Assembly (NCBI GenBank): GCA_016432525.1
Contig: CP066693.1
Coordinates: 482,732-546,731, forward strand
Length of the DNA: 64,000 nucleotides
Direction: 5' to 3'
Source: Candidatus Woesebacteria bacterium
GTDB taxonomy: Bacteria; Patescibacteriota; Microgenomatia; UBA8517
The notes beneath the pieces were generated by a model. The model saw only the letters and a list, made by a program, of their open reading frames with translations, was not told the origin of the DNA and searched no databases. The position numbers were made by a program, and so were the translations under genes. This document shows, one piece after another, positions 5,557-61,965 of this stretch; the stretch's first letter is position 1, and the number at the start of each line of letters is the position of its first letter.

Positions 5557-5558
5557 GT

Positions 5559-30703: not shown

Positions 30704-31838
30704 AACTCTAAAAATTTTTATTTTAACTTTAATTATTTGGAGGGTCTTTTTATTTTTCCCAATTTTTATCTCACAATTTATATTTCCTTTAAGTAGAAGT
30801 TATCTTGGCGGAGGGCTTAAATGGTATTTAACAAATCCTTATCTTTATGGTTGGGCCAATTTTGACGGTGAGCACTACCTCACAATTTCAAGAGATGGAT
30901 ACAGAATGTACGAATATTTTTTCTTTCCTGTTTTTCCTCTATTAATTAGATTTATAGCACAAATTTTCAGTAATACTTTTGTTTCTCACCTTGTAACATC
31001 GATAATAATTTCAAACATTTCATTTATCATTTCATTATTTGGATTTTGGAAATTATTAAGACTAGATTACGACAAAAAATTTTCACTTTTTTGTATTTTT
31101 ACACTACTCTGTTTCCCAATGTCTTTTTTCTTTACTTCAACCTATACAGAGTCAATATTTTTTGCGTTTATTATATGGACTTTTTACTTTGCAAGAAAAA
31201 AAAGATGGTTTTTTGCAAGTCTTTTAGGACTTTTTGCGTCAGCTACACGAATAGTTGGAATACTAATGTTACCAGTAGTATTTATTGAAATAATAATGAC
31301 CAGAAAAAATATTAACTACAAAATAGTTAACAGTCTATTTACGTTACTTATCCCGTTGGGGCTGTTAAGTTTTATGTTTTATCTTAAAAGACAGACGGGG
31401 GATCCCTTAATTTTTTTAAATACTATAAATATTTTTGGAAATCAAAGGTCGTCTCATCTTATTCTTCTTCCTCAAGTTTTTTACCGATATTTTTTTAAAA
31501 TTATTCCAAACTTAACACTTTCTTATTTTCAAACTAATTTTTTAACATTTATCGAACTAGCATCTGGAATAATTCTTTTAGTATTATCTGTAATCTCTTT
31601 TTTTAAATTGAGACTAAGTTATTCAATATTTTTAATATCTGGCTACATTGTTCCAACTTTAACAGGAAGTTTCTCATCATTGCCAAGATATATGTTAGTT
31701 TTATTTCCTGCATTTATTTTAATAGGAAAATTTTTGGAGAAAAAATCAGAATTTGCTAAAGTCCTAATACTATCAATATCGCTCTTTACTTTAGTTTTGG
31801 CGGAAAGTATTTTTATGAGAGGTTACTTTATTTCATGA
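30669..31838 (+). CDS. Polytopic membrane protein, GT-C-like (possibly PIG-V/GT76- or DUF2029-like mannosyltransferase).
   Basis: About 390 aa from ATG 30669 (MKFIKKFF). It has an N-terminal TM helix, then the loop GGGLKWYLTNPYLYGWANFDGEHYLTISRDGY and 9-10 further TM helices. The track ORF from 30561 appears to use an upstream alternative start inside the preceding gene. Confidence 0.45.
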   Translation: MKFIKKFFKKNKTLKIFILTLIIWRVFLFFPIFISQFIFPLSRSYLGGGLKWYLTNPYLYGWANFDGEHYLTISRDGYRMYEYFFFPVFPLLIRFIAQIFSNTFVSHLVTSIIISNISFIISLFGFWKLLRLDYDKKFSLFCIFTLLCFPMSFFFTSTYTESIFFAFIIWTFYFARKKRWFFASLLGLFASATRIVGILMLPVVFIEIIMTRKNINYKIVNSLFTLLIPLGLLSFMFYLKRQTGDPLIFLNTINIFGNQRSSHLILLPQVFYRYFFKIIPNLTLSYFQTNFLTFIELASGIILLVLSVISFFKLRLSYSIFLISGYIVPTLTGSFSSLPRYMLVLFPAFILIGKFLEKKSEFAKVLILSISLFTLVLAESIFMRGYFIS

Positions 31839-34997: not shown

Positions 34998-35507
34998 ATG
35001 TGTATGTTTAAAAGGTTTCTTGCTTTTACTCTGCTAATAGCACTTTCTTTAGGGCTAGCTTCTCCAACATTTGCACAAGTTCCTAGCCCTACTCCTACTC
35101 CTAAAATAGAAAATGTAAATTCTTTTGAACTTTTCTGGCCGATGGCTCCAGGTAAAACAATGGCTGACTCATTATATTTTCTTAAATCTTTAAAAGAAAA
35201 AATTAGAGGACTTTTAATTTTTGGTACACCACAAAAAGTAAATTACTCTGTCTATCTTTCCACTAAGCGTATATTGGAAGCTGAAAAACTCTATAACGAC
35301 AAAAATAAGGACCTAGGAAATAAAACAATGGATGAAGCAATAAAAGACCTTAATAAAGCCGTTTCTCAAAACAGTAAAGGAACAGACGAGACAAGTGACA
35401 GGTTAGCTAGACTTGATAAATTTTTAACCTGGTTTACAACAAAAAATTCTGCCGACAAATCTAAAATTCAAGATGCACTAAGTTTAGTGAAAAAACTTCT
35501 AGGATAA
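34998..35507 (+). CDS. Small secreted protein. It has a signal peptide and is a paralog of 41041..41532.
   Basis: Signal peptide LAFTLLIALSLGLASPTFA-QV, then a PSPTPTPK stretch and a helical, Lys-rich body. It shares a segment with 41041..41532 (FGTPQKVNYSVYLSTKRILEAEKL vs FSKTSKVDFYEYLAEKRLAEISYV). Confidence 0.4.
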   Translation: MCMFKRFLAFTLLIALSLGLASPTFAQVPSPTPTPKIENVNSFELFWPMAPGKTMADSLYFLKSLKEKIRGLLIFGTPQKVNYSVYLSTKRILEAEKLYNDKNKDLGNKTMDEAIKDLNKAVSQNSKGTDETSDRLARLDKFLTWFTTKNSADKSKIQDALSLVKKLLG

Positions 35508-36248
35508 CTATTTTTTAGCTACTATCAAAACATCTAATGGAAACTCTGTATTTTTATCACCCACAAAATGTCTTATTCCTATTGCTATTAGATTTAAAAA
35601 AGGTGTGGCGATAAGACCAAAAAACAAAAGAAATAAAGAAAACACTTTCGAAAATCTATTTTTTCGAGAAATACTATTCACATTTTTGAAATAAAAAACC
35701 AAAAATGATTGAATCCAAAAATCAAAGAAGGATCCTTGATATTCTGACTTTGAAATTCTGAATTTTGCATCTTTTAAAAACATCTCTAGCCTCGGTTTTG
35801 TAAATCTATTCTTGTCTAAATTACCATCATGTATTGGATACATAAAAGGAGTTGTCAAAATTATTGATCCTCCCTTTTTTAATACCCTAAAAGCTTCATT
35901 AAAGGCCAACTGTGGTTCATCTAGATATTCTAATACTTGAAGCATAGCGGCAATATCAAAGCTCTCTTTTTTAAAAGGTAGACTATTGGCATCAGCATAG
36001 AAATCAGGTTTTTGTGAAGATTTATACAATTTAGATGTTTTTGGGTGATCAACTCCAGTGTAAGATTTTATATATTTTAATAAATAATCTTTGTAAGGAG
36101 CCCTCCCTGATCCTATATCCAAAACAGCAACCTCACCTCTTTTTTTAATTTCTAAAACTCCTGCCCATGCAAAAGATAGTATAATAAATTGAGGATGAAA
36201 AATAGTTCTTCCAAAAATCTCAGTAAATCTAACCCAATAATTTTTCAT
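35508..36248 (-). CDS. Class I SAM-dependent methyltransferase with a C-terminal membrane anchor.
   Basis: Motif I VLDIGSGRAPY. Other matches: FDIAAMLQVLEYLDEP and LKKGGSIILTTP. Two C-terminal TM helices. Confidence 0.65.
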   Translation of the reverse strand: MKNYWVRFTEIFGRTIFHPQFIILSFAWAGVLEIKKRGEVAVLDIGSGRAPYKDYLLKYIKSYTGVDHPKTSKLYKSSQKPDFYADANSLPFKKESFDIAAMLQVLEYLDEPQLAFNEAFRVLKKGGSIILTTPFMYPIHDGNLDKNRFTKPRLEMFLKDAKFRISKSEYQGSFFDFWIQSFLVFYFKNVNSISRKNRFSKVFSLFLLFFGLIATPFLNLIAIGIRHFVGDKNTEFPLDVLIVAKK

Positions 36249-37749: not shown

Positions 37750-37811
37750 GATTATGGGTAATTATATACTGTTTTGTGTGATAAAATACATAAGTTTGTT
37801 TTATGTAGTTT
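37750..37811. promoter_or_regulatory. Divergent promoter region between the minus-strand methyltransferase (37749) and the plus-strand GT4 (37812).
   Basis: This 62-bp AT-rich spacer is the only sizeable non-coding gap between divergent genes. It contains a TGTGATAAAAT extended -10-like element. The call rests on position only; the genome is AT-rich, so such hexamers occur by chance. Confidence 0.25.
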
Positions 37812-38963
37812 ATGAGAATTGGCATTATTACTCACAATTATCCAAGTAACTCCAAAGAAAGGAAAGATGCTGGCACTTTTGTATACGATTTTGCTATGAA
37901 CTTGATAAGTAAAGGTTGCGAAGTATACATATTAAGTCCTAATTTTAAAGGTAAAAAAGAGAATTACACAAAAGCACCAGTCACTTGGTTTACCTGGCTA
38001 GGTGGAAAGAAAAAACTAGGAGATCTTTCTTTAACAAATCCAACACATCTTCTATATCTTGCTGATTTAATGATTCGAGGACCAATAGCAACAATTAAAT
38101 TTGTCAAAAAAAATAAGATAGATTTTTGTATCTGTATGTGGGCTTATCCATCTGGTTTTTTTACAATTGTCGCTAAAAAATTCACAAAAGTCCCTTATGG
38201 AATTATTACTCTTGGATCCGATATTTTCGTCTATACAAAATTTCTTCCTGCTAAATACTTAATTTCTTACATTTGTAAAAATGCAGACGCTTTATTTGGT
38301 AATAGTTACAGAATTTGTGATGCCGTAGAGAACCTTAGCAAGAAGAAATGTGAATTTTTAGCACTTTCAACTTCTTTAAAAATCAAAATACCCAAAAACT
38401 TAAAAATAAAGAATAAAAAATTTACCTTTCTTTTTGTTGGAAGGTTAGAAAAGGTAAAGGGACCTGATATTTTAATAGAATCAGCCAAAATCCTGAAAAA
38501 ACAAAAAATAAAATTTGAAATCCTAATGGTTGGTCCAGGAACAATGTATGAATTTTTGAAAGAAAAAATAAATCAATATAAGTTACAAGATTATGTAAAG
38601 TTATTAGGACCGATATTTAATCGAAAAAAATTATCAAATCTTTTTCTAACAACGGACAGCTTGGTAATACCATCAAGAAGTGAAAGTATGCCTTTTGTTT
38701 TAATTGAAGCAATATATGCAGGACTTCCAGCAGTAACAACAACCGTAGGGGATATGAAAAAAATGGTCAATAAATACAAAATCGGTTTTACAACAGATCC
38801 AGAAAACCCTAAAAAATTGGCTGTTGCCATGACAAGGGCCATTAAAGAAGGCAAAAATTTTAAAAATAGAAGAAAAAGAAATTTCGATAAACCAAGAAAA
38901 ATTTACGACACTGATGTGTCAATTAAAAGTTTCATTAAAAAAATAAATAAAGTACTAGAATGA
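37812..38963 (+). CDS. GT4 family glycosyltransferase (GT-B).
   Basis: FLFVGRLEKVKGPDILIESAKIL...PSRSESMPFVLIEAIYAGLPAVTTTVGDM. It is divergent from the methyltransferase at 37749. Confidence 0.65.
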   Translation: MRIGIITHNYPSNSKERKDAGTFVYDFAMNLISKGCEVYILSPNFKGKKENYTKAPVTWFTWLGGKKKLGDLSLTNPTHLLYLADLMIRGPIATIKFVKKNKIDFCICMWAYPSGFFTIVAKKFTKVPYGIITLGSDIFVYTKFLPAKYLISYICKNADALFGNSYRICDAVENLSKKKCEFLALSTSLKIKIPKNLKIKNKKFTFLFVGRLEKVKGPDILIESAKILKKQKIKFEILMVGPGTMYEFLKEKINQYKLQDYVKLLGPIFNRKKLSNLFLTTDSLVIPSRSESMPFVLIEAIYAGLPAVTTTVGDMKKMVNKYKIGFTTDPENPKKLAVAMTRAIKEGKNFKNRRKRNFDKPRKIYDTDVSIKSFIKKINKVLE

Positions 38964-41023
38964 AAAAAATATCGTTTTTGATAGGACTTATTTTTTTTGT
39001 AATTGGAGTTATCACTTTACCTCATTACAACATTAATTTCGACGCCATAAATCACCTTTCTAGGGGGCAAGCTTATCTACATTATTTTCTGACAGGCAAA
39101 AAAGATTATTCTGATCTTCCATCATTTGTTCGCTATTTTCAAAACCCTGAAAACCTTTTTTTACAGTCAGATATTTCAAAGTCTCAAATTGTCAAAAGAA
39201 GCGTTTACCAGCACGACTCTACCACTTTTGATTATTTTATACAGAATGACGGCTACGGACATCCACCTTTAAGTGATATTTTTTCCTCTGTATTTAATTT
39301 TGTGTTTTTCCAGAAATTGGGAATCATAAATGACATTGATTCATATCATTTGTACGGAATATTTTTGGCAAGTATTTTAGTTGCATTGATTTTTAAATGG
39401 ACAGCAAAAACATACTCTAAATTTGCTGGTATTATAGCCTCATTATCCTTGTCGTTGTATCCACTTTTCTTTTCTCAATCACATTTCAACACAGAAAAAG
39501 ACGTACCAGAAACAGCCTTTATAGCCTTTTTTATCTATTCATTTTGGAAGGGGATTACCCAAAAAAGTACAAAATGGATTATTCTTTCTGGAATATTTTT
39601 AGGTTTTGGAGTTGGAACAAAGCTAAATATTGCATTTGTAATTTTTATAATTATGCCTTGGCTTATTTCCTTTATACTTTCCAATTTTCCTAAAAGAAAA
39701 TTCGCAATTAAATCTTTTGTCAAAAAAAATTTATCAATTTTAATTTCACTTTTTTTAATTCCTCTAATTGCTTTTTCGATCTTTTTAATAAGTTGGCCAT
39801 ATCTTTGGGGTGATCCAGTCGAAAATATTTCAAAAGTGATTTCCTTTTACAAAGAAATAGGATTATCACAGACAAGCCAACAGTTAATTCCAGTTGCGGG
39901 AGTAAATACTTTCGCAATCCAGAGTCTAATTTTTATAACTCCTTTGGTTATTTTATTTTTTGCGATTTTAGGAATTATTTTTGTCATCAAACGTATAAAA
40001 TCCGAGAAACAAAAAACTGGTTTTTTGTTTCTATTGTGGTTTGCAATTCCTATTCTTAGAGTAAGCATATCAGGCACAAATATCTATGGAGGCCTAAGGC
40101 AAATTATGGAATATATCCCAGCAATGGCAATACTGTCGGGTTTAGGGGCACAAACCATTGCTGAAAAAATTATTAAAAAATTTCATTTTAATAAAAATTT
40201 AGTATATTTCCTTTTAGTTCTATTCTTTGTTCCTCTTATTGCTAAATTTATAAAAATTCACCCAAACGAAAATCTTTACTACAATCCTTTGATTGGTGGT
40301 CTAGCAGGAGCTAAAGAGAGAAATTTTCCATATTGGGGAGAAACCTACGGCGAGACATATAGACAAGCCACTGTATGGTTTGCTAAAAATGCTTCCAAAA
40401 ACTCCAAATTGGTATTTGCATACGAGCTTATGCCAAATATTCCAATAATATTTTTAAGAACTGACATAAACTTCTCCAATACTTTTCGAAGTGGATATTT
40501 AATGAATGGAGAGTATGCAGTGACTTTAATAAGCCAAGGTGTGGATAAACGCTCTTATTACGATATGTATTTAGAAAATTTCTTAAATCCTGTATATAAA
40601 GTTACTGTTGATGGTGTAGATGTACTAAAACTCTGGAAAAACGATTCTAAGCATCTTAAAATGCCTTTAAAAGAGAATCTTGATAAAAGCCTAACTTACA
40701 AAATTAATAAAGATGGAATTTTATTACAAACAAAGACACTACAAAAACTATCTCGATTAGAGATTGATTATTTAGATAAAAATTGCCCTCCAAAACTTTC
40801 TTCGGGAGTTATAGAAATTTCAAAAGACAATCAAAATTGGGATCGTCTGCCAGGAGTTTTACCAGATGACTGGAGAATTACATCTCTTGGTGAACAGCCA
40901 TCTCACGGTAAATTTATAGAGCCTTTTGTGGGTCAGAACGCAAAATTTATCAAGCTTGAATTAACTCCATCAAATACTTGTTTAAAAAATATCAAATCGT
41001 CAAGGTTATATTATTTTGAATAA
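38960..41023 (+). CDS. PMT_2/ArnT-like GT-C membrane glycosyltransferase with a C-terminal beta-sandwich-like (carbohydrate-binding-like) domain.
   Basis: 687 aa. The N-terminal loop NINFDAINHLSRGQAYLHYF and the segment FDYFIQNDGYGHPPLSDIFSS are shared with 42506..44605 (INWDEPYHFNRGQAYLNYI; FDYIIKNDGYGHPPTNDILSS). About 12 TM helices, then a soluble tail of about 200 aa. Confidence 0.6.
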   Translation: MKKISFLIGLIFFVIGVITLPHYNINFDAINHLSRGQAYLHYFLTGKKDYSDLPSFVRYFQNPENLFLQSDISKSQIVKRSVYQHDSTTFDYFIQNDGYGHPPLSDIFSSVFNFVFFQKLGIINDIDSYHLYGIFLASILVALIFKWTAKTYSKFAGIIASLSLSLYPLFFSQSHFNTEKDVPETAFIAFFIYSFWKGITQKSTKWIILSGIFLGFGVGTKLNIAFVIFIIMPWLISFILSNFPKRKFAIKSFVKKNLSILISLFLIPLIAFSIFLISWPYLWGDPVENISKVISFYKEIGLSQTSQQLIPVAGVNTFAIQSLIFITPLVILFFAILGIIFVIKRIKSEKQKTGFLFLLWFAIPILRVSISGTNIYGGLRQIMEYIPAMAILSGLGAQTIAEKIIKKFHFNKNLVYFLLVLFFVPLIAKFIKIHPNENLYYNPLIGGLAGAKERNFPYWGETYGETYRQATVWFAKNASKNSKLVFAYELMPNIPIIFLRTDINFSNTFRSGYLMNGEYAVTLISQGVDKRSYYDMYLENFLNPVYKVTVDGVDVLKLWKNDSKHLKMPLKENLDKSLTYKINKDGILLQTKTLQKLSRLEIDYLDKNCPPKLSSGVIEISKDNQNWDRLPGVLPDDWRITSLGEQPSHGKFIEPFVGQNAKFIKLELTPSNTCLKNIKSSRLYYFE

Positions 41024-41040
41024 AACTGTTATATACTAAA

Positions 41041-41532
41041 TTGATGCGCAAATTCCAAAAGATTTTTATTTCATTATTATCAGTTTTGGTACTAGGACTA
41101 ATGATTTCATCTTCTCAAATCTATGCCCAGGAACTTAAATTTGAGGTCAACCATATAGCTAATGGCTTTGAGAAAATAGGAGAAAAGATCACTCTCTTTT
41201 TAAAATTTTCAAAAACTTCAAAGGTTGATTTTTATGAGTATCTCGCAGAGAAACGTTTAGCTGAAATTTCTTATGTTATTGAAGCAAATCAAATAGATTC
41301 TGTCGAGCCAACTGCTTCTAGGTATTCTACATATATTGGAGTACTAACAAATTATGTGGAAGCCAATAAAGTTACAAGTAAAAAAGGCGATCTTGTAAAA
41401 ATGTTTGAAAGACACTCCAAAATTTTAACAAACCTCCAAAGCAAATTTAAGCATGACTCTGGTTGGTGGTTAGCAATACAAAATGACATAAATAACACTA
41501 AAACTTTTTCTGAAAAAATAAAAACTTTATAA
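41041..41532 (+). CDS. Small secreted protein. It has a signal peptide and is a paralog of 34998..35507.
   Basis: Signal peptide ISLLSVLVLGLMISSSQIYA-QE and a helical, Lys-rich body. Confidence 0.4.
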   Translation: MMRKFQKIFISLLSVLVLGLMISSSQIYAQELKFEVNHIANGFEKIGEKITLFLKFSKTSKVDFYEYLAEKRLAEISYVIEANQIDSVEPTASRYSTYIGVLTNYVEANKVTSKKGDLVKMFERHSKILTNLQSKFKHDSGWWLAIQNDINNTKTFSEKIKTL

Positions 41533-41533
41533 T

Positions 41534-42472
41534 CTATTTTTTCTCCAACAAATAAACTGTTTCTCCCCTCCCAAAAATTAAAAAAATAATTTGATATAAA
41601 AAAGTGACAACTGGGTTAAGGTTTAGGCTTATATTAATATCTCTTTTATTTTGACCAAAAATCTTTTTAGCAACTTTTAGTCCAAAAGAAATTAATCCCT
41701 TTCTTCTAAAATAATAATCCTTACCCTCAGTTCCGTAATTTATCATGAGCTTTAAACTAAGCGGAGGCACTACACCAGTAATTTTAAGATTCTTTCTGTA
41801 AGACCACTGAATTATCTTTTCTATGCTATATGTCGTCACTTGTGGGTTTATATATGCATCATAAACAAAAGCTTTACTTTTTCCTTTACCAAGATCTAAG
41901 AGTCTAACCAAAAACATCCTAATCGAAATATTTTTGCCGGAAAGAAAATCTAAAATCCAAAGTTGACACTTATAGAAAAACAGTCCATAGGAATTGTAAA
42001 GCATTATTATCATTTTTCCTCTCTTGGTTAGTTTGGTTGATAAGATACTAAATCCTTTTCTGGGATTCGAAAGATGATGTATCACTCCACAACTGTAGAC
42101 TAAATCAAATTTTCTCGAAAGATTCGGCAAATCATCAATAATTGAACACTTTAAAATTTTTACATTTTTAACTCTAGCTTTTTTGATATTTTGTAAAGCT
42201 ATAGAAATTGAAGCATTAGAAATATCGACTCCTAATATTTTTGATTTAGGGTAGATTCTCGAAAGTGCTATTACTTCCTCACCAGTTCCACAACCAGCAC
42301 ATAAAATTGCCTTTGGATGTTTAGATATGAGTTCGTTAGATAAAAAATCAAGATTTAATTTTGTCCATTTGACAATCCGATCTAGCTCTTTGTTAAAATT
42401 TTTAGCCTTTCGTAAACTATCAGGAAAAGGTGCATCTTCATAACAATGTTTTACTTTTTGCTCTAAACTCAT
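41534..42472 (-). CDS. Class I SAM-dependent methyltransferase.
   Basis: Motif I ILCAGCGTGEE, then ILGVDIS, FDLVYSCGVIHHLSNP and LTKRGKMII. I place the start at ATG (MSLEQKVKH). The longer track ORF to 42496 starts at a TTG. Confidence 0.65.
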   Translation of the reverse strand: MSLEQKVKHCYEDAPFPDSLRKAKNFNKELDRIVKWTKLNLDFLSNELISKHPKAILCAGCGTGEEVIALSRIYPKSKILGVDISNASISIALQNIKKARVKNVKILKCSIIDDLPNLSRKFDLVYSCGVIHHLSNPRKGFSILSTKLTKRGKMIIMLYNSYGLFFYKCQLWILDFLSGKNISIRMFLVRLLDLGKGKSKAFVYDAYINPQVTTYSIEKIIQWSYRKNLKITGVVPPLSLKLMINYGTEGKDYYFRRKGLISFGLKVAKKIFGQNKRDINISLNLNPVVTFLYQIIFLIFGRGETVYLLEKK

Positions 42473-42505
42473 AGTATAAACTGAATTATAATACAATATC
42501 TAAAA

Positions 42506-44605
42506 ATGGTGCGAAGCAAATTTCTCAAAATATTTCTGGTTACATTTATACCCTTAACATTCTTAGTAACTGCTGTAATCACACTACCTGACTATGGAAT
42601 TAATTGGGACGAACCTTATCATTTTAATAGAGGTCAAGCATACTTAAATTATATTTTATTTGGTTGGCATAATTATCTGAATATACCAGCCTTTCCAAAA
42701 CCAAAAGGGGATTCAGATTTTGTAAGTAAAACAGGGGAGCAGGATATATCAGTAAATGCAAAAACTAGTACAATTGCCGCAAATCCTTCTTACCGAAGAA
42801 GCTATTTTATGTCAGATGTTTTCAATTTTGACTATATTATAAAAAACGATGGATATGGACATCCACCAACCAATGACATTCTTTCATCATTCACAAATTT
42901 TATCTTTTTTCACAAACTTGGAGTTTTAGGCGATATCGAATCTTATCATTTATTTGAAGTAATGGCAGGATTTACCCTTGTTCTAATAGTTGCAATTTTT
43001 TGCTACCAAGAATTTGGTCTGCTTACCTCCATTACAGCGTCATTTGCTTTATCTTCATATCCACTCTTTTTTTCTGAATCTCACTTTAATATTAAAGACC
43101 CTCCCCAGGCATCTTTCTATGGAATAGCAATTATTCTATTTTATTTAGGGATCAAAAAAAATAAATGGTGGCTAATTTTGGTATCAGCAATAAGCGCTGG
43201 ACTTGCATTGGGGACCAAATTCAATATTGTTTTTATGCCTTTTATTGTGGGTCCTTGGTTTTTGGTATTTCTGAAAAAAAATTTCAAAAAGTTCTTTTCT
43301 AACAAAAAACTAATTATTAGTTTAATTTTATATCCTGCAATTATTTTTTTTATTTTTTTTATTTTTTGGCCCTATTTATGGAGTGATCCAATCAATCATT
43401 TTGGCCAAGTTCTAAAGTTCTACGAAGATGTTGGTACATCATCAACTGGAGAGTTAACAAACTACATTTATCATGGGTTTAATTTTTTTGCGCCTTTTTG
43501 GATTGCAGTAACAACTCCGATTCCAATTTTATTTTTGACTCTTGTTGGCATTGTCTCATCTTTTTTTCAGTTTTTTAAACTAAAAAAAGATGTATATCTT
43601 CTGCTTGTAATATGGTTTTTCGTGCCGATCACAAGAGTTGTTGTTCCTGGTACGACGATCTTTAGTGGTGTAAGACATATCCTTGAATTTTTACCAGCAA
43701 TGGCAATCCTTGCAGGGATGGGTACTTTAACCATATACAAACTGGCTTTTAAATTACAATCTAAAATTCTTATTATTGCTATTTTCTTAGTTTCTTTTTC
43801 TTTTGTTATTTGGGAAGTAGCACGTCTTCATCCTAACGAAAATGTATATTTTAATCAGTTAGTAGGAGGGCTAAATGGTGCAATGGAAAAGGATATTCCT
43901 TTTTGGGGATATAACTATGGAAATGTTTACCTTCAAGGGATCCAGTATCTTAACAAAAATGCTCAAGCCAATGCGAAACTGGGTTTAGCCATACTCAATA
44001 TGGTTAATGTTCCTCGCCCAAAATTAAGATTGGATATTGATTTTTCTAACGCCTATCCAAGTGCGTTCGCTCATAATGGTGAGTATGTAATGGAAATGTC
44101 GAATAATTTTGGACTTAAAAAAATTTACAGTTACCTTTATTACGAAACATATCTTAACCCAGTCTATATATTAAAAGTAGATGAGACACCACTCTTAACA
44201 ATTTGGAAAAACGATCCTAGTCACTTAAAAAAAGGGTTTGAGAAAGAAATAGAATATAAACCAGTAAGTCAAAGTATAAATAAAAGTGTTTTAACTATCG
44301 ATTTTGGCAAAGAAATATATTTAACAAAAATCAAAATTGCTCACTCAAGCCAAGATTGCGATATTCAAAAAGGTGGTTACGTAATGCTTTCGTCTGACCA
44401 AAAAAACTGGAAGCAAGAGCCCGAAACAATCGATTATCCTCAAATACCTATCAAATGGCTCGGTGAAGATAATAATCATTTTGTATTTCTTTTCGTTGCC
44501 AAAAAAGCAAGGTTTTTATATTTAGATACCCAAATGGAAAATTCGTGCATATTGAAAAACCCAATAATTAGTCTATTTGGTCTACTTAAATTTCCTCTAG
44601 AATAA
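42506..44605 (+). CDS. PMT_2/ArnT-like GT-C membrane glycosyltransferase with a C-terminal soluble domain. It is a paralog of 38960..41023.
   Basis: 699 aa. It has the DE loop motif (GINWDEPYHF). It is collinear with 38960..41023 throughout (PGTTIFSGVRHILEFLPAMAILAG vs SGTNIYGGLRQIMEYIPAMAILSG; HPNENVYFNQLVGGL vs HPNENLYYNPLIGGL). Confidence 0.6.
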   Translation: MVRSKFLKIFLVTFIPLTFLVTAVITLPDYGINWDEPYHFNRGQAYLNYILFGWHNYLNIPAFPKPKGDSDFVSKTGEQDISVNAKTSTIAANPSYRRSYFMSDVFNFDYIIKNDGYGHPPTNDILSSFTNFIFFHKLGVLGDIESYHLFEVMAGFTLVLIVAIFCYQEFGLLTSITASFALSSYPLFFSESHFNIKDPPQASFYGIAIILFYLGIKKNKWWLILVSAISAGLALGTKFNIVFMPFIVGPWFLVFLKKNFKKFFSNKKLIISLILYPAIIFFIFFIFWPYLWSDPINHFGQVLKFYEDVGTSSTGELTNYIYHGFNFFAPFWIAVTTPIPILFLTLVGIVSSFFQFFKLKKDVYLLLVIWFFVPITRVVVPGTTIFSGVRHILEFLPAMAILAGMGTLTIYKLAFKLQSKILIIAIFLVSFSFVIWEVARLHPNENVYFNQLVGGLNGAMEKDIPFWGYNYGNVYLQGIQYLNKNAQANAKLGLAILNMVNVPRPKLRLDIDFSNAYPSAFAHNGEYVMEMSNNFGLKKIYSYLYYETYLNPVYILKVDETPLLTIWKNDPSHLKKGFEKEIEYKPVSQSINKSVLTIDFGKEIYLTKIKIAHSSQDCDIQKGGYVMLSSDQKNWKQEPETIDYPQIPIKWLGEDNNHFVFLFVAKKARFLYLDTQMENSCILKNPIISLFGLLKFPLE

Positions 44606-45557
44606 ATGATTTATAGTCTTGTTTCTTTTGTGAATAAACAACCATTTCAGCAAGTAATCCAGTTGTAATTAACTGAACTCCCAAAGTCATCAATAGAACA
44701 CCTAAAAAAAGCAATGGTTGATGAAATTGAATACTTCCAGTTGTAATTCTTAAATATGTAATATAAAGCCCAATTATAAATCCCCCAGAAAAAGACAAAA
44801 ATCCTAAACCTCCAAAAAAATGCCCTGGGCGTTGCACATATCCAGTCAAAAAAACTACAGTTAATAAATCTAATATTCCTTTAATACTCCTACTCCATCC
44901 AAACTTTGATTTCCCATATTTTCTTGAATGATGAATGACAGGTATCTCAGAAATTCGAAAACGCATTTTAGCTGCGAGTATAGGGATAAATCTGTATAGT
45001 TCTCCATAAAGATTTAAATTTTCTACAACCTCTCTTCTGTAAGCTTTAAAACCACAATTCATATCATGAACTTTAACATCTGTTAAAACTCTTGCCGTAT
45101 AGTTAATAAAACGAGAAGGGATCACCTTGGAAAACTTAGGATCATGCCTAGTTTTTTTCCAACCAGATACTAAATCATATCCTTCCTTGATTTTTTTTAA
45201 AAAATTAGGAATTTCTTTAGGATCATCTTGAAGATCAGCATCCATAGTAAAAATAATCTCACCTCGAGCCAGATTAAAACCATTTTGAAGTGCAACTGAT
45301 TTCCCAAAATTTCCTCGATGTTTTATTACATGTATCTTTTTATCTCGCTTGGCCAAAGTCTTGAGAATTTTGAAAGTGTTATCCTTTGATCCATCATCTA
45401 CAAAAATTATTTCAAAATTATTAGAAATTTTTTTAATCACTTTTTCTATATTTTTACAAAGTATTACAACAGACCCTTCCTCATCTTTTGCAGGGATCAC
45501 AAATGAATATTTAATATTTCGCATATTTACTCTTTGCGTATTTCTGGCTGACATCAT
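44586..45557 (-). CDS. GT2 polyprenol-phosphate glycosyltransferase (GtrB/ArnC/CsbB-like) with a C-terminal 2-TM anchor.
   Basis: YSFVIPAKDEEGSV...IIFVDDGSKDNT...RGNFGKSVALQNGF...IFTMDADLQDDP...YDLVSGWKKTRHDP, followed by two TM helices (LTVVFLTGYV...; PLLFLGVLLMTLGVQLITTGLL). The likely true start is the internal MRNIKYS at about 45524. Confidence 0.7.
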   Translation of the reverse strand: MMSARNTQRVNMRNIKYSFVIPAKDEEGSVVILCKNIEKVIKKISNNFEIIFVDDGSKDNTFKILKTLAKRDKKIHVIKHRGNFGKSVALQNGFNLARGEIIFTMDADLQDDPKEIPNFLKKIKEGYDLVSGWKKTRHDPKFSKVIPSRFINYTARVLTDVKVHDMNCGFKAYRREVVENLNLYGELYRFIPILAAKMRFRISEIPVIHHSRKYGKSKFGWSRSIKGILDLLTVVFLTGYVQRPGHFFGGLGFLSFSGGFIIGLYITYLRITTGSIQFHQPLLFLGVLLMTLGVQLITTGLLAEMVVYSQKKQDYKSFILEEI

Positions 45558-45574
45558 ATCATATCTTATATCAC

Positions 45575-46426
45575 ATGACTAACCCCCTGATTTCAATCAT
45601 AATTCCAGCTAAAAATGAGGAAAAAAATATAGGTAGACTTCTTGAAAGTATAAAGCGACAAACTTACAAAAAAATACAAATAGTATTAGTAGACGATGGC
45701 TCTACTGACAAAACAGTCGAAATATCAAAACGATTCAGTAAATATGTTTATAAAAGAAAACATCTTGAAAGAAGTATCCAGAGAAATTTTGGAGCTAAAA
45801 AAGCACACGGCAGTTTTCTAGTTTTTTTAGATGCAGATATGGAGTTGACTCCCAAAGTTATTGAGGCTAGCATAAAAGTTCAAAGAAAAACCAAAGCCAA
45901 AGCAATAACAATTGCAGAAAAAACGGTTGGAAATAATTTAATTGCAAAAATCCGCACATTTGAAAGACAAATGTATTTAGGAGATAAAACAATAGAATTA
46001 GCTCGTTTTTTTGAAAAAAAAGTCTTTTGGGAATTTAAAGGATATGATCCAAGCCTTACTGGACCAGAAGATTACGATCTTCCTTATAGAATTGGCAAGA
46101 AATACAAAATTTCAAGATGTAGTGAATATATTCTCCATCATGAAGAAAATATAACTTTAACAAAACTTCTCAAAAAAAAGTACTACTATGCTTCAAAAGG
46201 TGCTTTATATGCACGAAAACATCCCGAACTCATAAAAACTCAAGGGAATCTTTTCTTTCGAAAGGCATATTTTAAAAACTGGAAAAATTTTATTAAAAAT
46301 CCATTTTTAGGCACTTCATTTATATTTATACGAATTTTAGAGAGCATATGGGCAACTGCAGGGTATATAAGCGCGGTTGGAATAACTGGATTTTTCAAAA
46401 CTTCTGTGATAATGTTTAAGCCATAA
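45575..46426 (+). CDS. GT2 family glycosyltransferase.
   Basis: ISIIIPAKNEEKNIGRLLESI...IVLVDDGSTDKT...FLVFLDADMEL. Confidence 0.65.
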   Translation: MTNPLISIIIPAKNEEKNIGRLLESIKRQTYKKIQIVLVDDGSTDKTVEISKRFSKYVYKRKHLERSIQRNFGAKKAHGSFLVFLDADMELTPKVIEASIKVQRKTKAKAITIAEKTVGNNLIAKIRTFERQMYLGDKTIELARFFEKKVFWEFKGYDPSLTGPEDYDLPYRIGKKYKISRCSEYILHHEENITLTKLLKKKYYYASKGALYARKHPELIKTQGNLFFRKAYFKNWKNFIKNPFLGTSFIFIRILESIWATAGYISAVGITGFFKTSVIMFKP

Positions 46427-48508
<2,082 letters not shown>

Positions 48509-49267: not shown

Positions 49268-49981
49268 ATGAAAAATATTTTCAAAAAATTAAGAATTTAC
49301 GGTTTAAAACGTTTTAGTCTATTTCTATTAGGAGAAATGAAATATCTAGTATGGTTTCAAAAGATAAAAAATTCATATAGCCAACTACAAGAAGATATTC
49401 TAATAGATAAAATTTTAGGGTTTAAAAAAAAAGGTTTTTATGTTGACGTTGGAGCCAACGATCCAATTCGCTTTAGTAATACGTTCAGATTCTATAAAAA
49501 AGGATGGAGAGGTATAACAATAGAACCAGATACTCTTTCATTTGAAAAGCTACAAAAAACTAGGCCAAAGGATTTAAATTTGAATTTGGGGGTAGGAACT
49601 AAAAAAAAGACAACTTATTTTTACAAATTTTTTCCTGACACTCTTTCAACTACCTCAAAAAAAAGTTCTGACAAATACGAAAAACAGGGATTTAAAATGT
49701 TAGGAGTAGAAAAAATCAAAATAGAAAAGCTTTCTACCTTACTTAAAAAATTTTGTAAAAGAAATATAGACCTTATGTCTGTTGACACAGAAGGATATGA
49801 TTTAGAGGTTTTAAAAAGCAATAATTGGAAAAAATTCCGCCCTAAAATTTTATGTATTGAAGTTTCTCAAATAAAAGAAAACAAAATTAAAAATTATTTA
49901 GCTAAAGTAGGGTATAGGCAATACTTAAACAATGGCCTAAACTCTATATTTATAGAAAAAAATTATCATAAAACTTTATGA
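49268..49981 (+). CDS. FkbM-family methyltransferase.
   Basis: EDILIDKILGFKKKGFYVDVGANDPIRFSNTFRFYKKGWRGITIEPDT...IDLMSVDTEGYDLEVLKS...ILCIEV matches the FkbM (TIGR01444-type) pattern. Confidence 0.7.
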   Translation: MKNIFKKLRIYGLKRFSLFLLGEMKYLVWFQKIKNSYSQLQEDILIDKILGFKKKGFYVDVGANDPIRFSNTFRFYKKGWRGITIEPDTLSFEKLQKTRPKDLNLNLGVGTKKKTTYFYKFFPDTLSTTSKKSSDKYEKQGFKMLGVEKIKIEKLSTLLKKFCKRNIDLMSVDTEGYDLEVLKSNNWKKFRPKILCIEVSQIKENKIKNYLAKVGYRQYLNNGLNSIFIEKNYHKTL

Positions 49982-51723
49982 AAATAATTGGACTTACATG
50001 TCACTACACGGGAAATCACGATAATTCAGCTGCGCTTTTAATCGATGGCAAAATCGTGTTTGCCGAAAGCGAAGAAAGAATTACAAGAATTAAGCACGAC
50101 AGGCAATTTCCAATTAAATCTATTAAACATAATTTAAAATATAAAAAACTAAAAATCTCTGACATTGACTATTTCGCCTCAGCTTCACCTCCAACCAATC
50201 TCGGAAAGTTACTTTCACATTATTTTAAAGGTTTCACTTACACTTCAACATTAGAATTTTTTCGCTGGACTCTAGGTCGAAGTCTTCAGATGATATCTTC
50301 AAATAGTCAAAATAAAAATTCACATATACCTAATACTTACTATGAAACCAACTTACCAAAAAAGAAGTTAGTTTTCATATCTCATTATCTCGCTCATGCA
50401 GAAACCGCTTACGTCTTTTCAGAAATGGATAAATGCTTAATTGTTGCTTGGGATGGCTATGGTCTCAATGAAGATGGTTCACCTCTCTGCGGAAGTATTT
50501 ATTTGGGTCAAAATGGAGAATTAACACTTTTGGAAGAAATTCCAATATATGCATCTCTTGCTCTTTACTATGGTGCAGTAACCATCGCCCTAGGTTTTAA
50601 ATTAAATGATGGTGAAGGAAAAACAATGGGACTTGCAGTTTATGGGAAAGAAAGTCCTGCAGTAAAAGAGATTAGAGACATCTTTCCTTATTTCGATGGT
50701 AAAAAATGGATTCCTAGAAGTAATTGGTTGGAAGTAAACAGTGTCTCAAGGACTGAATTTTTTAAAAAAACCTCAACTTATAAAAAAATAAAAAAATTAA
50801 TAGATATGTACGGAAATCAACAAATTGCATTTGCAGCACAAAAAATTTTGGAAGTAGAGGCAGAAAAGTTCTTCAGATATTTGGTTAAAAAATATCAGGA
50901 GAAAAATATTGCTTTAGCAGGGGGGATTTTTCTAAATGTGAAATTTAATATGAAACTTCTCGAAAATAAAATTGCAAAAAAACTTTTTATATATCCAAAT
51001 CCAGGGGATGGTGGGGTGGCAGTTGGTGCAGCACTCGCTCTTTATAAAAAGCTAGGTAAAAAAATTCCTGTAGTGGGAATGAATAATGTTTATCTTGGTT
51101 GTGAGTACAATAAAAATGAAATTAAAAAAGAACTTAAAAAATTTAATAAAAAAATTGTATTTATTGATTTGGCTGACAAACTACCAAAAACAATAGCTAG
51201 TCACGTTGCAAATGGCAAGGTGGTCGGTTGGTTTCAGGGAAGAGGAGAATGGGGGCCAAGAGCATTAGGAGCAAGAAGCGTTTTGGCTGATCCAAGATTT
51301 ATTGAAACAAAAGACAGGATTAATTCAAAACTAAAACAAAGAGATTGGTTTATGCCTTTTGCTCCAGCAATATTGGAAGAATTTTCAAAAAAAGTTCTAG
51401 TCCATAATTTTGGAACCCCTTATATGACATTAACTGATGACGTCAAAAAAAATGTCGCCAAAAAAATTCCTGCTGCAATTCATATTGATAACACTGCTAG
51501 ATCGCAAATTGTTAACAAAAAAACAAACCCGCTTTATTGGTCGGTAATCAATGAATTCAGAAAACTAACAGGTATTCCAGTGATTTTAAATACAAGTTTT
51601 AATAAACACGGGCTTCCAATTGTCCATTCACCCAAAGAAGCAATAGAGCATTTAATTTGGGGTTGCGTGGATGAACTAGCAATAGGTCCTTTTTTGGTAA
51701 TCAAAGCCTCTAAAAAGAAATAA
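49978..51723 (+). CDS. Carbamoyltransferase (NodU/CmcH/NovN/TobZ family).
   Basis: The N-terminal Carbam_trans_N pattern is KIIGLTCHYTGNHDNSAALLIDGKIVFAESEERITRIKHD...HYLAHAETAY...VAWDGYG. The C-terminal carbamoyltransferase motifs are GGIFLNVKFN, GDGGVAVGAAL, GRGEWGPRALGARS, RDWFMPFAP and ILNTSFNKHG. Confidence 0.8.
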   Translation: MKIIGLTCHYTGNHDNSAALLIDGKIVFAESEERITRIKHDRQFPIKSIKHNLKYKKLKISDIDYFASASPPTNLGKLLSHYFKGFTYTSTLEFFRWTLGRSLQMISSNSQNKNSHIPNTYYETNLPKKKLVFISHYLAHAETAYVFSEMDKCLIVAWDGYGLNEDGSPLCGSIYLGQNGELTLLEEIPIYASLALYYGAVTIALGFKLNDGEGKTMGLAVYGKESPAVKEIRDIFPYFDGKKWIPRSNWLEVNSVSRTEFFKKTSTYKKIKKLIDMYGNQQIAFAAQKILEVEAEKFFRYLVKKYQEKNIALAGGIFLNVKFNMKLLENKIAKKLFIYPNPGDGGVAVGAALALYKKLGKKIPVVGMNNVYLGCEYNKNEIKKELKKFNKKIVFIDLADKLPKTIASHVANGKVVGWFQGRGEWGPRALGARSVLADPRFIETKDRINSKLKQRDWFMPFAPAILEEFSKKVLVHNFGTPYMTLTDDVKKNVAKKIPAAIHIDNTARSQIVNKKTNPLYWSVINEFRKLTGIPVILNTSFNKHGLPIVHSPKEAIEHLIWGCVDELAIGPFLVIKASKKK

Positions 51724-51747
51724 TTTTTATGTTATACTTGTGCCGAT

Positions 51748-60174: not shown

Positions 60175-60950
60175 TTCCCAAGTTTTTTTCTTTCATTGAC
60201 TATAAACTCTTTAATTTCTTTAAGTATTTGGGATCTGTGATAAATATATTCATCTTTTGATCCATACAATTTTCCATATTTAGTTCTAAAATCAAAAACC
60301 AAAGGTGGTTTTTCAGTAATATTTTTAAAATTTACATTAAGTGAATATTTTGCAATTTGGCAGGCTGTTACAGACTCTGTCGCAAAATTGATAAGTTTTA
60401 TTTTATTTTTAATTGCAATTTGAATGTCTCTCCATATATTTTTTAAGTGATAAAACTGCATTAAGGTATCTTTATGCGTAAAATCCAATGCGTTGTCAAA
60501 AATTAAATCATAAATAAAATTCTTTTTTAAACCATCACCGTATAATTGAGGACACCTGATAATTGTCACGTCAGAAAAATTCCTTTTAATAAATAACTCC
60601 ATCTTATATCTATGTTTACCATAGGCCTCTTTTAAGTCCAAAAATTTAATTTTTGTATCTTCATTTATTCCTACTTTGTTTGGATAAACATCAACAGTAG
60701 AAATCAAAATAAACTTCTTTGTATTTACTTTCGAAAGATTATCTAAAAGTTTTTTAATCCCTTTCCAATCATCTTTTGGTTCTTGATTTGCCTTCCATCT
60801 TAAAGCAGAAGTTGCTGCACTAACAATTAAGTCATATTTTTTGCCTTTAATATCTTCAATATTTTTCGAATTATATAAATCGTCAAAATGATACTGTGAA
60901 AGCAAATTCGACCCCACAAATCCCGTGTAACCTATTAGCGCTGATTTCAT
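60171..60950 (-). CDS. NAD(P)-dependent sugar epimerase/reductase-like protein (short, RmlD-like).
   Basis: N-terminal Rossmann motif ALIGYTGFVGSNL. The 259-aa size and ISTVDVYP pattern resemble dTDP-4-dehydrorhamnose reductase-like proteins. It overlaps both neighbours by 4 nt. Confidence 0.45.
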   Translation of the reverse strand: MKSALIGYTGFVGSNLLSQYHFDDLYNSKNIEDIKGKKYDLIVSAATSALRWKANQEPKDDWKGIKKLLDNLSKVNTKKFILISTVDVYPNKVGINEDTKIKFLDLKEAYGKHRYKMELFIKRNFSDVTIIRCPQLYGDGLKKNFIYDLIFDNALDFTHKDTLMQFYHLKNIWRDIQIAIKNKIKLINFATESVTACQIAKYSLNVNFKNITEKPPLVFDFRTKYGKLYGSKDEYIYHRSQILKEIKEFIVNERKKLGK

Positions 60951-61945: not shown

Positions 61946-61965
61946 TAGCCCCTATTATAGTAAAA

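Follow-up and report, generated by a model that had tools for sequence, protein, structure and literature searches.

Two diverged GT-C glycosyltransferase paralogs with predicted beta-sandwich tails next to a probable polyprenyl-phosphate sugar synthase in a Candidatus Woesebacteria genome

Almost nothing is known about the cell envelopes of the uncultured CPR/Patescibacteria. In other organisms, paralogous GT-C glycosyltransferases are established to form heterodimers, as in Pmt1/2 and EmbA/B. GT-C enzymes that carry carbohydrate-binding modules (CBMs) include EmbA/B/C, AftD and the GT136 enzyme ORF12, in the last of which the CBM is dispensable for activity (PMC11127046). In the streptococcal Pgf (PgfS/PgfM1/PgfE/PgfM2) and GtrB/PgtC2 systems, a GtrB-type GT2 is clustered with two GT-C enzymes and an epimerase, with transfer taking place outside the membrane (PMC12041528). 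Herein we analysed a Woesebacteria genome in which glycan assembly takes up more than 60 kb of the window, i.e., of the whole 64-kb stretch of DNA under study, and focused on a pair of GT-C genes (A and B) and their neighbours (Table 1). The explanation that we favour for the locus as a whole, albeit with modest confidence, is that A and B are diverged paralogs that use a lipid-linked sugar supplied by a GT2 synthase and engage their acceptor through a lectin-like sandwich.

Table 1 Features of the A/B locus, with positions counted from the first letter of the window.
Feature	Position	Strand	Details
GT4 (Glycos_transf_1) cytoplasmic glycosyltransferase	37812..38963	+	Pfam E = 1.3e-34; stop overlaps A start (ATGA)
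Paralog A, GT-C enzyme, 687 aa	38960..41023	+	Three modules: core res 1-432, alpha/beta res 433-566, sandwich res ~572-687
Codon of Asp28, candidate catalytic base of A, first extracytoplasmic loop (NINFD-A)	39041..39043	+	Invariant column in A- and B-type members
A alpha/beta subdomain, begins with HPNENxYxN..GGL motif	40256..40657	+	AF2 pLDDT mostly >90
A C-terminal beta-sandwich, predicted galactose-binding-domain-like, CBM32/F5-8C type; invariant C609, C674	40673..41020	+	
DUF5667 protein, 163 aa, N-terminal hydrophobic signal/anchor segment res 5-23	41041..41532	+	Pfam PF18915 E = 7.4e-10
SAM-dependent methyltransferase of class I, 312 aa, with a single TM helix at the C-terminus (tail anchor)	41534..42472	-	Pfam Methyltransf_31/25/11; TM res 281-299
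Divergent spacer, 33 bp, palindrome ATTATAAT at 42485-42492	42473..42505	.	−10-like
Paralog B, GT-C enzyme, 699 aa	42506..44605	+	Same three-module layout as A; loop-1 motif INWD35-E
B alpha/beta subdomain, res ~442-571	43829..44218	+	
B C-terminal sandwich, predicted CBM32/discoidin-like, res ~578-699; invariant C618, C681	44237..44602	+	
ArnC/GtrB/DPMS-type GT2, two C-terminal TM helices	44586..45557	-	Convergent with B, 3' ends overlap 20 bp
Soluble GT2, divergent from ArnC-like GT2, 17-bp spacer	45575..46426	+	Pfam E = 1.1e-28
SDR epimerase/reductase, closest to GDP-L-fucose synthase (Fcl)	46427..47380	+	NCBIfam NF047922 E = 9.2e-87

Paralog A matches the NCBI entry [quoted passage not shown] (P0001) at 100%. 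The original prediction, made from the sequence of the window, had described A and B as collinear paralogs, and this was borne out by their end-to-end alignment, in which the similarity holds over the whole length and lies far beyond chance (261/693 identical, 38%, E = 2e-140); all the shared motifs it had quoted were recovered as well (NINFDA / INWDEP, FDY[FI]I[QK]NDGYGHPP and HPNEN[LV]Y[YF]N.L[IV]GGL). The two enzymes fall into separate orthogroups, with orthologs of A at 48-60% identity and those of B at 44-69%, and the duplication is ancient, each paralog having its own orthologs. What that prediction had missed is that A and B belong to a large GT-C family, often present in multiple copies, that occurs across many Microgenomates-type (CPR) lineages, is restricted to MAGs of these lineages and is without any relative that has been solved or characterised; a profile of the family gave no match to PDB sequences at E ≤ 0.1.

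Genes of both types sit within one cluster in the window and in two related loci (L001 and L004), and A- and B-type matches recur at equal longest-contig sizes (25781, 688316, 18810, 23102, 62814 and 80522 bp), which suggests shared contigs. Together with the Pmt1/2 and EmbA/B structures found among the Foldseek matches of B, this would fit an obligate A-B heterodimer, like Pmt1-Pmt2 or EmbA-EmbB, instead of two independent enzymes. We consider such an obligate partnership very unlikely, however, as many loci have next to the GT2 a lone A-type gene (L002, L003, L023, L030, L031) or a lone B-type gene (L008, L010, L013, L017), B is paired with another B in L005, and the invariant catalytic-candidate residues are all kept in both types.

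The AlphaFold models of A and B are confident (pLDDT 92–94; pLDDT 93.5 and pTM 0.92 for the AF2 model of B) and predict a polytopic membrane core with the GT-C class A fold of the PMT_2 type. Pfam PMT_2 (PF13231), which we take to be a family that also covers ArnT, matched A at 49.6 bits and B at 33.6 bits, both above the cut-off of 26.1, and was found in 63 of the 64 family members. With full-length B as query, Foldseek returned STT3, AglB, ArnT, Pmt4, PglB, Emb and AftD (E = 7.5e-8 to 1e-4, probability 1.00). Both types keep all the candidate catalytic residues without variation, D35/D28, GHPP, SHFNxKD, GTKxN and R..E among them; the loop-1 aspartate (Asp28 in A, Asp35 in B) is the same in all 64 A- and B-type sequences and is ~99% conserved among 121 A-type sequences, and it sits where GT-C enzymes have their loop-1 Asp (PMC11127046). 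The pair that this residue opens is D-E in the B type, D-A in A and D-T in the A-type consensus. Two more specific identities were not borne out: for an oligosaccharyltransferase (STT3/AglB/PglB), neither translation contains WWD and PF02516 is absent at E ≤ 0.01, the place corresponding to the WWDxG motif being occupied by HPNENxYFN; for an ArnT (GT83) equivalog, neither A nor B has any NCBIfam match at E ≤ 0.001.

The structural matches also bear on the kind of acceptor. It is possible, though in our view doubtful, that A and B act on secreted or surface proteins (S-layer proteins, pilins or Ser/Thr-rich regions), either O-linked as PMT, PgfM1 and PgtC2 or N-linked as an oligosaccharyltransferase, with the sandwich binding the protein or its attached glycan. 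Catalytic subunits of oligosaccharyltransferases head the Foldseek matches of full-length B (STT3 7.5e-8, AglB 2.7e-7), but the E-values of ArnT are of the same order, and the WWDxG motif and an STT3 Pfam match are both absent. Pmt4 gave the highest target TM-score (0.55) and Pfam PMT (PF02366) lies above threshold in A (32.5 bits against a cut-off of 22.7), while B does not pass it and only 14/64 members match; similarly, the D-E pair of B-type loops is typical of PMT, whereas A-type members have D-T or D-A. The neighbouring GT2 matches PgfS and AglJ, both of protein glycosylation, and the same GT2 plus GT-C logic is applied to proteins by the streptococcal GtrB/PgtC2 and PgfS/PgfM1 (PMC12041528). 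Against this, the 64-kb surroundings resemble an island for polysaccharide assembly (Wzx-like flippases, numerous GT2/GT4, methyl- and carbamoyltransferases), and no candidate target protein was identified.

The C-terminal tail had been described as a beta-rich domain of ~200 aa. The beta-rich part stood but the size did not, as the tail, probably extracytoplasmic, measures ~255 aa and divides into an alpha/beta domain (~130 aa) and a sandwich (~120 aa). When A-type and B-type members are compared, the former is the best-conserved module (39/136 columns) and the latter the least conserved (9/116 columns), with loops that are conserved in a type-specific manner. A fold of the CBM or F5/8 type C kind had been proposed for the tail, and the last ~120 aa of both paralogs are indeed modelled with high confidence as a beta-sandwich (AF2 pLDDT 92.5), which in these models is galactose-binding-domain-like, of the CBM32/discoidin type, and superposes on such domains; the Foldseek matches of full-length B in this region were 5xnr CBM32, neuropilin b1, DDR2 and lactadherin C2. 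At the sequence level the signal is fainter. Pfam F5_F8_type_C (PF00754) matched the B tail at 15.3 bits (E = 0.023) and the A tail not at all, and reached E ≤ 0.01 in 18/64 family members, all of them sub-threshold: the best score, 25.5 bits in the homolog P0103, stays under the gathering score of 28.2, and the member with the best E-value (1.1e-5) is placed just under that threshold by comparison with P0103. The sole PDB sequence matches of the sandwich, also weak, were CBM32 modules, via the S-x-D-G-x-x-W and A-R-Y motifs. These motifs (the second followed by a hydrophobic residue) are common to the A/B sandwich and to CBM32/F5-8 type C (discoidin) domains; the A/B sandwich differs in being shorter (~115-120 aa), in its invariant internal Cys pair, in not reaching the Pfam gathering threshold and in its attachment to a glycosyltransferase, whereas most of the matched CBM32s belong to glycoside hydrolases, a sialidase and alginate lyases.

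Since galactose-binding-domain-like sandwiches also bind lipids and proteins, carbohydrate binding is not implied by the fold alone. Structural matches of the sandwich extend to factor V C2, APC10/DOC and IFT25, the canonical sugar-binding residues of CBM32 are not identifiable, the columns conserved in both types are core or structural ones, and the module behaves as a modular unit, being carried by 89 proteins and missing from 13 (~13% of the family). A structural, membrane-binding or protein-binding role (as in factor V/VIII C2, APC10/DOC or IFT25) would suit these observations. We nonetheless hold it to be unlikely that the sandwich is no lectin at all: it is part of a glycosyltransferase polypeptide and would lie on the glycan-building side of the membrane, bacterial CBM32 modules in sugar complexes account for its best matches and for the greatest number of them, and in A-type sandwiches a cluster of loops (LPGxLPxDWRI, GEQP, FxEPFxGQ) is strongly conserved, which suggests a ligand site. 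There is also direct precedent in the acceptor-binding CBMs of GT-C enzymes, and by analogy with those of EmbC, AftD and GT136 ORF12, binding of an acceptor or glycan by the sandwich is a reasonable proposal (PMC11127046). The original prediction went further and suggested processive addition, for which we found no support.

It had likewise stated that a third gene, at 61966, ends similarly, which did not hold up. Its tail is not homologous (hhalign probability of the sandwich profile against it, 0.2%), the likeness to A is confined to the PMT_2 core (27% over 270 aa, E = 3e-4), and with a near-threshold match to CBM_4_9 (25.1 bits versus a cut-off of 25.9) its module is CBM_4_9-like instead of an A/B sandwich.

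The conserved partner of the pair, overlooked at first, is the ArnC/GtrB-like GT2 and not the methyltransferase. This GT2 can be aligned along its entire length to solved structures of ArnC (9hwj, E = 2.2e-43), GtrB (5ekp, 5.4e-27) and DPMS (5mlz, 2.5e-19), and in NCBIfam it matches ArnC (3.5e-53), PgfS (6e-43) and AglJ, although the score of the ArnC equivalog was not reached. On these alignments it is probably a polyprenyl-phosphate sugar synthase that supplies the donor. An ArnC-like GT2 occurs in 42 of the 78 related loci (49-68% identity), in 22 of those convergent and less than 600 bp from a family GT-C gene, and from this synteny we infer that the donor of A and B is a polyprenyl-phosphate-linked sugar. 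The probable synthase component of a three-component system of the Gtr/Arn/GT136 type is encoded with the GT-C enzymes. As for the flippase, none of the GtrA, EamA or MATE type was found in a Pfam scan of nearly all window ORFs of at least 150 aa, and no dedicated flippase of the GtrA/ArnEF type adjoins the A/B genes; the only candidates in the window are two Wzx-like Polysacc_synt_3 proteins, at 1452 and 31835, far from the pair. Several membrane ORFs of the window have no Pfam match. Other recurrent neighbours are the GT4, which many related loci have upstream of their A-type genes, the soluble GT2, with a counterpart at no less than 40% identity in 31/78 loci, and the SDR, which is kept downstream in L001, L004 and L005 and scores 291 bits against NF047922, under the 500-bit equivalog cut-off.

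Between A and B, the anticipated minus-strand methyltransferase is present and of class I, with no specific NCBIfam family reaching its cut-off, as is the protein that had been described as secreted, a DUF5667 protein with a signal-like hydrophobic N-terminal segment. The former is clade-specific, being beside the pair in only 3/78 loci, and 14/78 loci have a DUF5667 homolog close to family GT-C genes. We regard both as accessory, and the unit of methyltransferase and B as a clade-specific insertion between the DUF5667 and GT2 genes. Alignment with the L001 ortholog backs the methyltransferase start at the ATG at 42472, so that the spacer to B measures 33 bp, as originally estimated. Its palindrome ATTATAAT gives TATAAT whichever strand is read, 13 nt from the start codon of B and 12 nt from that of the methyltransferase, and is part of a 15-mer, TGAATTATAATACAA, that is unchanged in L001; in L004, ~480 bp are inserted at this junction. 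No Shine-Dalgarno motif was found in the spacer; the genome is Shine-Dalgarno-poor, and tiny divergent spacers are general there. Because both genes head transcription units and two separate promoters would exceed 33 bp, the overlapping divergent promoters suggested earlier are plausible on sequence grounds. All four divergent junctions of the window span 17-62 bp, and the tight spacing is therefore general in this genome, not peculiar to the pair.

Taken together, the most likely function is extracytoplasmic glycosylation in which a polyprenyl-phosphate sugar is the donor and the sandwich binds the acceptor. The ArnC/GtrB-like GT2 would move a sugar from a nucleotide sugar to polyprenyl phosphate at the cytoplasmic face, the lipid-linked sugar would be flipped to the outer side of the membrane, and there A and B would each pass the sugar to a cell-envelope glycan or glycoconjugate, which the terminal sandwich, as a lectin-like module, would recognise and position. 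As A and B diverge most in the sandwich and yet the A-type loops are conserved, the two enzymes probably serve different acceptors or steps. A far bolder scheme, which we think decidedly improbable, is that the family (A-type, B-type and a large unassigned pool, often in tandem) forms a Microgenomates-specific relay that builds a surface glycan outside the membrane, in which each sandwich reads the previous product, single sugars are added in fixed order without cytoplasmic assembly of repeat units, and the alpha/beta domain is a new donor- or acceptor-handling module without solved counterpart. The lectin-like module, the coupling to an ArnC-like donor synthase and the invariant loop-1 Asp provide reagents and hypotheses for CPR surface glycans, and the sandwich domains in isolation could be used as probes. 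The conceptual advance is modest, since mycobacteria and enterobacteria already provide established examples of a GT-C enzyme with an acceptor-binding CBM.

Compared with known pathways, the GT2 aligns over its full length with both ArnC and GtrB of the ArnC/ArnT and GtrB/GtrC pathways, and of the structures matched by B, ArnT is one of the best (E = 4.9e-7, TM 0.49). To our knowledge, ArnT has no alpha/beta plus sandwich tail; nor do we know of lipid A synthesis in CPR bacteria of this group, and the acceptor must therefore differ from that of ArnT. The streptococcal Pgf and GtrB/PgtC2 systems resemble the locus in clustering a GtrB-type GT2 with two GT-C enzymes and an epimerase; their acceptors are Ser/Thr-rich disordered protein regions, and the available part of the source describes no CBM32-like tail (PMC12041528). 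The mycobacterial EmbA/B/C and AftD have a GT-C core, a polyprenyl-phosphate sugar and C-terminal extracytoplasmic CBMs on the acceptor glycan, as proposed for A and B, and their paralogs are encoded side by side, like A and B; they differ in length (~1050-1400 aa), in their CBM types and sequence families and in building actinobacterial cell-wall arabinan, and a sequence relationship to A/B is not detectable. GT136 ORF12 of Citrobacter youngae belongs to the same succession of donor synthase, flippase and a GT-C enzyme whose beta-rich CBM, at the C-terminus, binds the acceptor polysaccharide, and has its catalytic Asp near TM1 (Kelly et al. 2024, PMC11127046). That system has a phosphoribose-type donor synthase, a MATE flippase and an Ig-like CBM (PMC11127046), where the window has an ArnC/GtrB-type GT2 synthase, a CBM32-like sandwich and no adjacent flippase found. 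The A/B pair is, in short, a sound and fairly ordinary variant of the known GT-C plus CBM design.

The two GT-C genes of PMT_2 type that we call A and B lie where the original prediction had placed them and are collinear paralogs: in BLASTP, residues 8-677 of A align with residues 15-685 of B at 261/693 identities (38%, E = 2e-140), a similarity that did not weaken on full alignment, and all the motifs quoted for the pair were found in the sequences. A is identical to an NCBI protein entry from a Candidatus Woesebacteria MAG, and the GC content of the window is ~31%. Both proteins exceed the Pfam gathering score for PMT_2, over only ~150 residues of the membrane core, and the Pfam scan assigned no family to their tails, i.e., the extracytoplasmic C-terminal parts. 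The DUF5667 protein encoded downstream of A had no match among PDB sequences.

Coordinates of the GT-C genes, their neighbours and the divergent junctions in the window
Feature	Position	Strand	Size	Remark
A	38960..41023	+	687 aa ORF	GT-C paralog
DUF5667 protein	41041..41532	+		Pfam; hydrophobic segment at N-terminus
Methyltransferase	41534..42472	-		class I SAM
B	42506..44605	+	699 aa ORF	GT-C paralog
ArnC-like GT2	44586-45557	-		convergent with B
Tandem carbamoyltransferases (two)	49978-53523	+		NodU/CmcH-type
Carbamoyltransferase	56232-57149	-		aspartate/ornithine type
GT2	60947-61945	-	332 aa	divergent from 61966 gene
61966 gene	61966-64000	+		partial GT-C
Divergent junction	37750-37811		62 bp
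Divergent junction	42473-42505		33 bp
Divergent junction	45558-45574		17 bp
Divergent junction	61946-61965		20 bp

We modelled the tail of A with AlphaFold2, using residues 433-687 as the first alignment row together with 62 full-length homologs, and obtained a structure (mean pLDDT 92.5, pTM 0.89) with two subdomains, namely an alpha/beta domain of ~130 aa that opens with the family motif HPNENxYFNxLIGGLxGA and an all-beta domain covering the final ~120 aa. A full-length model of B (63 homologs; pLDDT 93.5, pTM 0.92) has the same tail organization, and its tail independently matches CBM32 (5xnr), neuropilin b1, DDR2 and lactadherin C2 in Foldseek. The tails are neither disordered nor all-alpha, and the predicted C-terminal beta-sandwich holds as a fold given these confident models and CBM32-type matches, although the ~200 aa beta-rich region originally described is really 130 aa of alpha/beta followed by 120 aa of sandwich.

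The sequence counterpart of this fold is fainter. PF00754 reached E = 0.023 against the B tail, 25.5 bits against the homolog P0103 (under the cut-off of 28.2), and E <= 0.01 in 18/64 family members, while a sandwich-only profile gave just three matches among PDB sequences (E = 0.13-0.34), all of them to CBM32/F5-8C modules and with alignments that rest on S-x-D-G-x-x-W and A-R-Y-hydrophobic. We read this as a real signal of CBM32 homology, but a weak, sub-threshold one. The sandwich, spanning about residues 572-687 in A and 578-699 in B, also carries two invariant Cys (C609/C674 in A, C618/C681 in B), compatible with an extracytoplasmic disulfide. With the sandwich of A as a single query sequence, 1.84 billion representatives yielded 26 matches, mostly C-terminal fragments, and none placed it in another protein context except two repeat-containing proteins. 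In these, P0260 (506 aa) and P0264 (1075 aa), the query was matched in 6-7 repeated stretches each, with the P0260 repeats matching its S-x-D-G-x-x-W part, and both may be multi-discoidin repeat proteins.

Foldseek comparison of the full-length B model retrieved STT3 (E = 7.5e-8), AglB (E = 2.7e-7), ArnT (E = 4.9e-7, target TM 0.49) and Pmt4 (target TM 0.55), as well as PglB, EmbA/B/C and AftD; the modelled protein thus resembles GT-C class A enzymes, with none standing out singly. The GT-C family profile had no match at E <= 0.1 among sequences of solved structures (PDB), and NCBIfam contains no model for the family. An assignment of A and B as oligosaccharyltransferases was rejected, since both the WWDxG motif and an STT3 Pfam match are absent. 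The Asp of the first outer loop (loop-1 Asp; D28 in A, D35 in B) is invariant across A- and B-type sequences (those orthologous to A or to B), as are GHPP, SHFNxKD, GTKxN, an Arg and a GGxRxxxE block, and the residue following this Asp is Glu in B-type sequences, Thr in the A-type consensus and Ala in A of the window. These residues mark neither paralog as a dead enzyme.

Searches of 5.8 billion proteins (E <= 1e-5, 8000 candidates scored per search) yielded at least 593 matches for A and at least 915 for B, the best 120 of which share 47-60% identity with A, over its full length, and 43-69% with B, respectively. A recent tandem duplication was rejected, as identity is 38% between A and B vs 48-69% between either one and its own orthologs elsewhere. 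At least two family copies occur in 22/78 fetched loci, and A-type and B-type HMMs sorted the family ORFs of these loci and the window into 24 of A-type, 18 of B-type and 60 without a clear fit to either; the pair therefore belongs to an old, multi-copy family rather than being the product of a local duplication. When one genome per species was scanned, 75 loci were obtained, most of them titled Woese-, Davies-, Blackburn-, Levy-, Gottesman-, Roizman-, Shapirobacteria or Microgenomates/Patescibacteria, with single records titled Parcubacteria, Berkelbacteria, Saccharimonadales and Woesearchaeota. Many cluster-bearing contigs (L004, L005, L008, L013 and others) bear the title 'MAG TPA_asm: uncultured Gammaproteobacteria bacterium' and one 'Candidatus Woesearchaeota archaeon'; on this otherwise Microgenomates-type cluster, such titles probably reflect wrong taxonomic assignment in the source records.

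The modules differ in how they are retained across the family. Core, alpha/beta domain and sandwich occur together in 89 members, and core with alpha/beta domain only in 13, of which several stop directly after the alpha/beta domain (family genes in L040, L057, L059, L071 and L075) and others have an unrecognised ~125-aa tail (L053, L065, L070 and L074). These natural variants are useful material for testing the role of the sandwich. Columns identical in A- and B-type sequences number 75/420 in the membrane core, 39/136 in the alpha/beta domain and 9/116 in the sandwich, and A-type sandwiches keep a conserved loop cluster of their own (LPGxLPxDWRI, GEQP and FxEPFxGQ), which is the pattern that would be expected of a specificity module.

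The methyltransferase between A and B was rejected as a conserved functional partner, being present in only 3/78 related loci. Locus L001 has the gene order of the window (A, DUF5667, methyltransferase (-), B, GT2 (-), GT2 (+), Fcl-like, GT4) and L002 has A, DUF5667, GT2 (-), GT2 (+), so that the methyltransferase and B together look like an insertion; in L005, a B-type gene stands where A would be. L004 has the order of the window except for ~480 bp between methyltransferase and B, at 5469-5958 of that locus, which contain the remnant of an ORF on the minus strand (MEKVIVLTTINPPKGEIQKL...), terminated by a stop; the divergent spacing therefore need not be tight. As called by the ORF finder, the methyltransferase of the window reaches back to a TTG at 42496, and the start of the L001 ortholog aligns with the ATG at 42472, so the original methyltransferase coordinates and 33-bp spacer are correct.

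This spacer was proposed to hold shared, overlapping divergent promoters. It contains ATTATAAT (42485-42492), which reads as TATAAT on either strand and sits in a 15-mer, TGAATTATAATACAA, identical in L001, and TATAAT lies 6-13 nt ahead of the start codon in all four B genes preceded by the methyltransferase. Across the window, almost no gene has a Shine-Dalgarno motif, TATAAT-like hexamers start 12-29 nt ahead of the ATG of operon-first genes, and the divergent junctions are tiny, which together make overlapping divergent promoters with very short leaders likely at this spacer. A generic consensus promoter scan of 40900-42800 showed no enrichment (6 sites vs 9.0 +/- 3.2 expected), and no terminators or terminator-like hairpins were found in the same interval. 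The wider pattern points to mRNAs with short leaders or none and to divergent promoters that overlap as a rule in the window, likely a genome-wide habit; the promoter proposal is thus plausible for the spacer, but the arrangement is not peculiar to the pair.

The recurrent neighbour of family GT-C genes is the ArnC-like GT2. In 42/78 loci there is a homolog of 49-68% identity, which in 22 of the 42 follows a family GT-C gene convergently at a distance of no more than 600 bp. In the window, B and the GT2 run into each other at their 3' ends by 20 bp (44586-44605); in other loci the convergent gap measures 3-86 bp. Full-length matches to ArnC (NCBIfam model, E = 3.5e-53; solved structure 9hwj, E = 2.2e-43), GtrB (5ekp, E = about 5e-27) and DPMS (5mlz, E = 2.5e-19), together with two TM helices at the C-terminus, indicate that this GT2 is probably a polyprenyl-phosphate sugar synthase. 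An SDR downstream is closest to GDP-L-fucose synthase in NCBIfam (E = about 9e-87), under the equivalog cut-off.

The window in its entirety forms a glycan island that comprises many GT2 and GT4 genes, ten or more GT-C genes (PMT_2/YfhO), six or more methyltransferases, two Wzx-like flippases and two carbamoyltransferases. The tandem NodU/CmcH-type pair and the carbamoyltransferase of aspartate/ornithine type together hint at carbamoylated sugars. Five ORFs of 425-573 aa without any Pfam match (2908-4629, 16778-18460, 30561-31838, 53527-55188 and 57966-59384) may encode additional membrane glycosyltransferases or polymerases of divergent sequence. The arrangement of a DUF5667 gene (+) running towards a methyltransferase gene (-) appears twice in the window (34998-36248 and 41041-42472) and twice in L001 (1743-3079 and 10061-11492). 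The proteins encoded in these pairs are not close paralogs. Segmental duplication was rejected for the two pairs of the window, whose DUF5667 proteins lack BLASTP similarity at E <= 1e-3; their methyltransferases had no direct match to each other. The 61966 gene, said to end similarly to A and B, resembles A in the PMT_2 core only (27% over 270 aa, E = 3e-4) and had no match to the family core profile. Homology of its tail to the A/B sandwich was rejected (hhalign probability 0.2% against the sandwich profile), and the tail instead has a near-threshold Pfam match to CBM_4_9 (25.1 bits vs 25.9). It is thus a different GT-C with an unrelated CBM-like tail, repeating the theme without tail homology, and with its divergent GT2 it is a second, non-homologous case of GT-C, CBM and GT2.

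By analogy, extracytoplasmic glycosylation of the Gtr/Arn type is the reading with the best support, and in such a system the sandwich would bind the acceptor. The ArnC-like GT2 would produce a lipid-phosphate sugar, which would be flipped across the membrane; on the outer face, A and B would pass the sugar to envelope acceptors via the loop-1 Asp, with the acceptor held by the terminal sandwich. Protein glycosylation by A and B is a serious alternative, on the model of streptococcal GtrB/PgtC2 and PgfS/PgfM1, which PMC12041528 describes as protein glycosylation systems; the GT2 also matches PgfS over its full length (NCBIfam, E = 6e-43). As for the original prediction, its observations largely stand, as does the fold, and a sugar- or acceptor-binding role for the tails is reasonable by precedent; processive addition found no support, as nothing pointing to a polymerising activity was found. 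We found no relevant literature on GT-C with discoidin, Patescibacteria with GT-C, or the candidate phyla radiation (CPR) with ArnT. The family is of use to CPR envelope biology and no conceptual surprise: A and B belong to an uncharacterised family of known design, in which a GT-C with a CBM is paired with a polyprenyl-phosphate sugar synthase. EmbC, AftD and the GT136 enzyme ORF12 are GT-C enzymes whose CBMs bind the acceptor polysaccharide, and the CBM of ORF12 is not essential (PMC11127046); the acceptor-binding module proposed for A and B would share this design.
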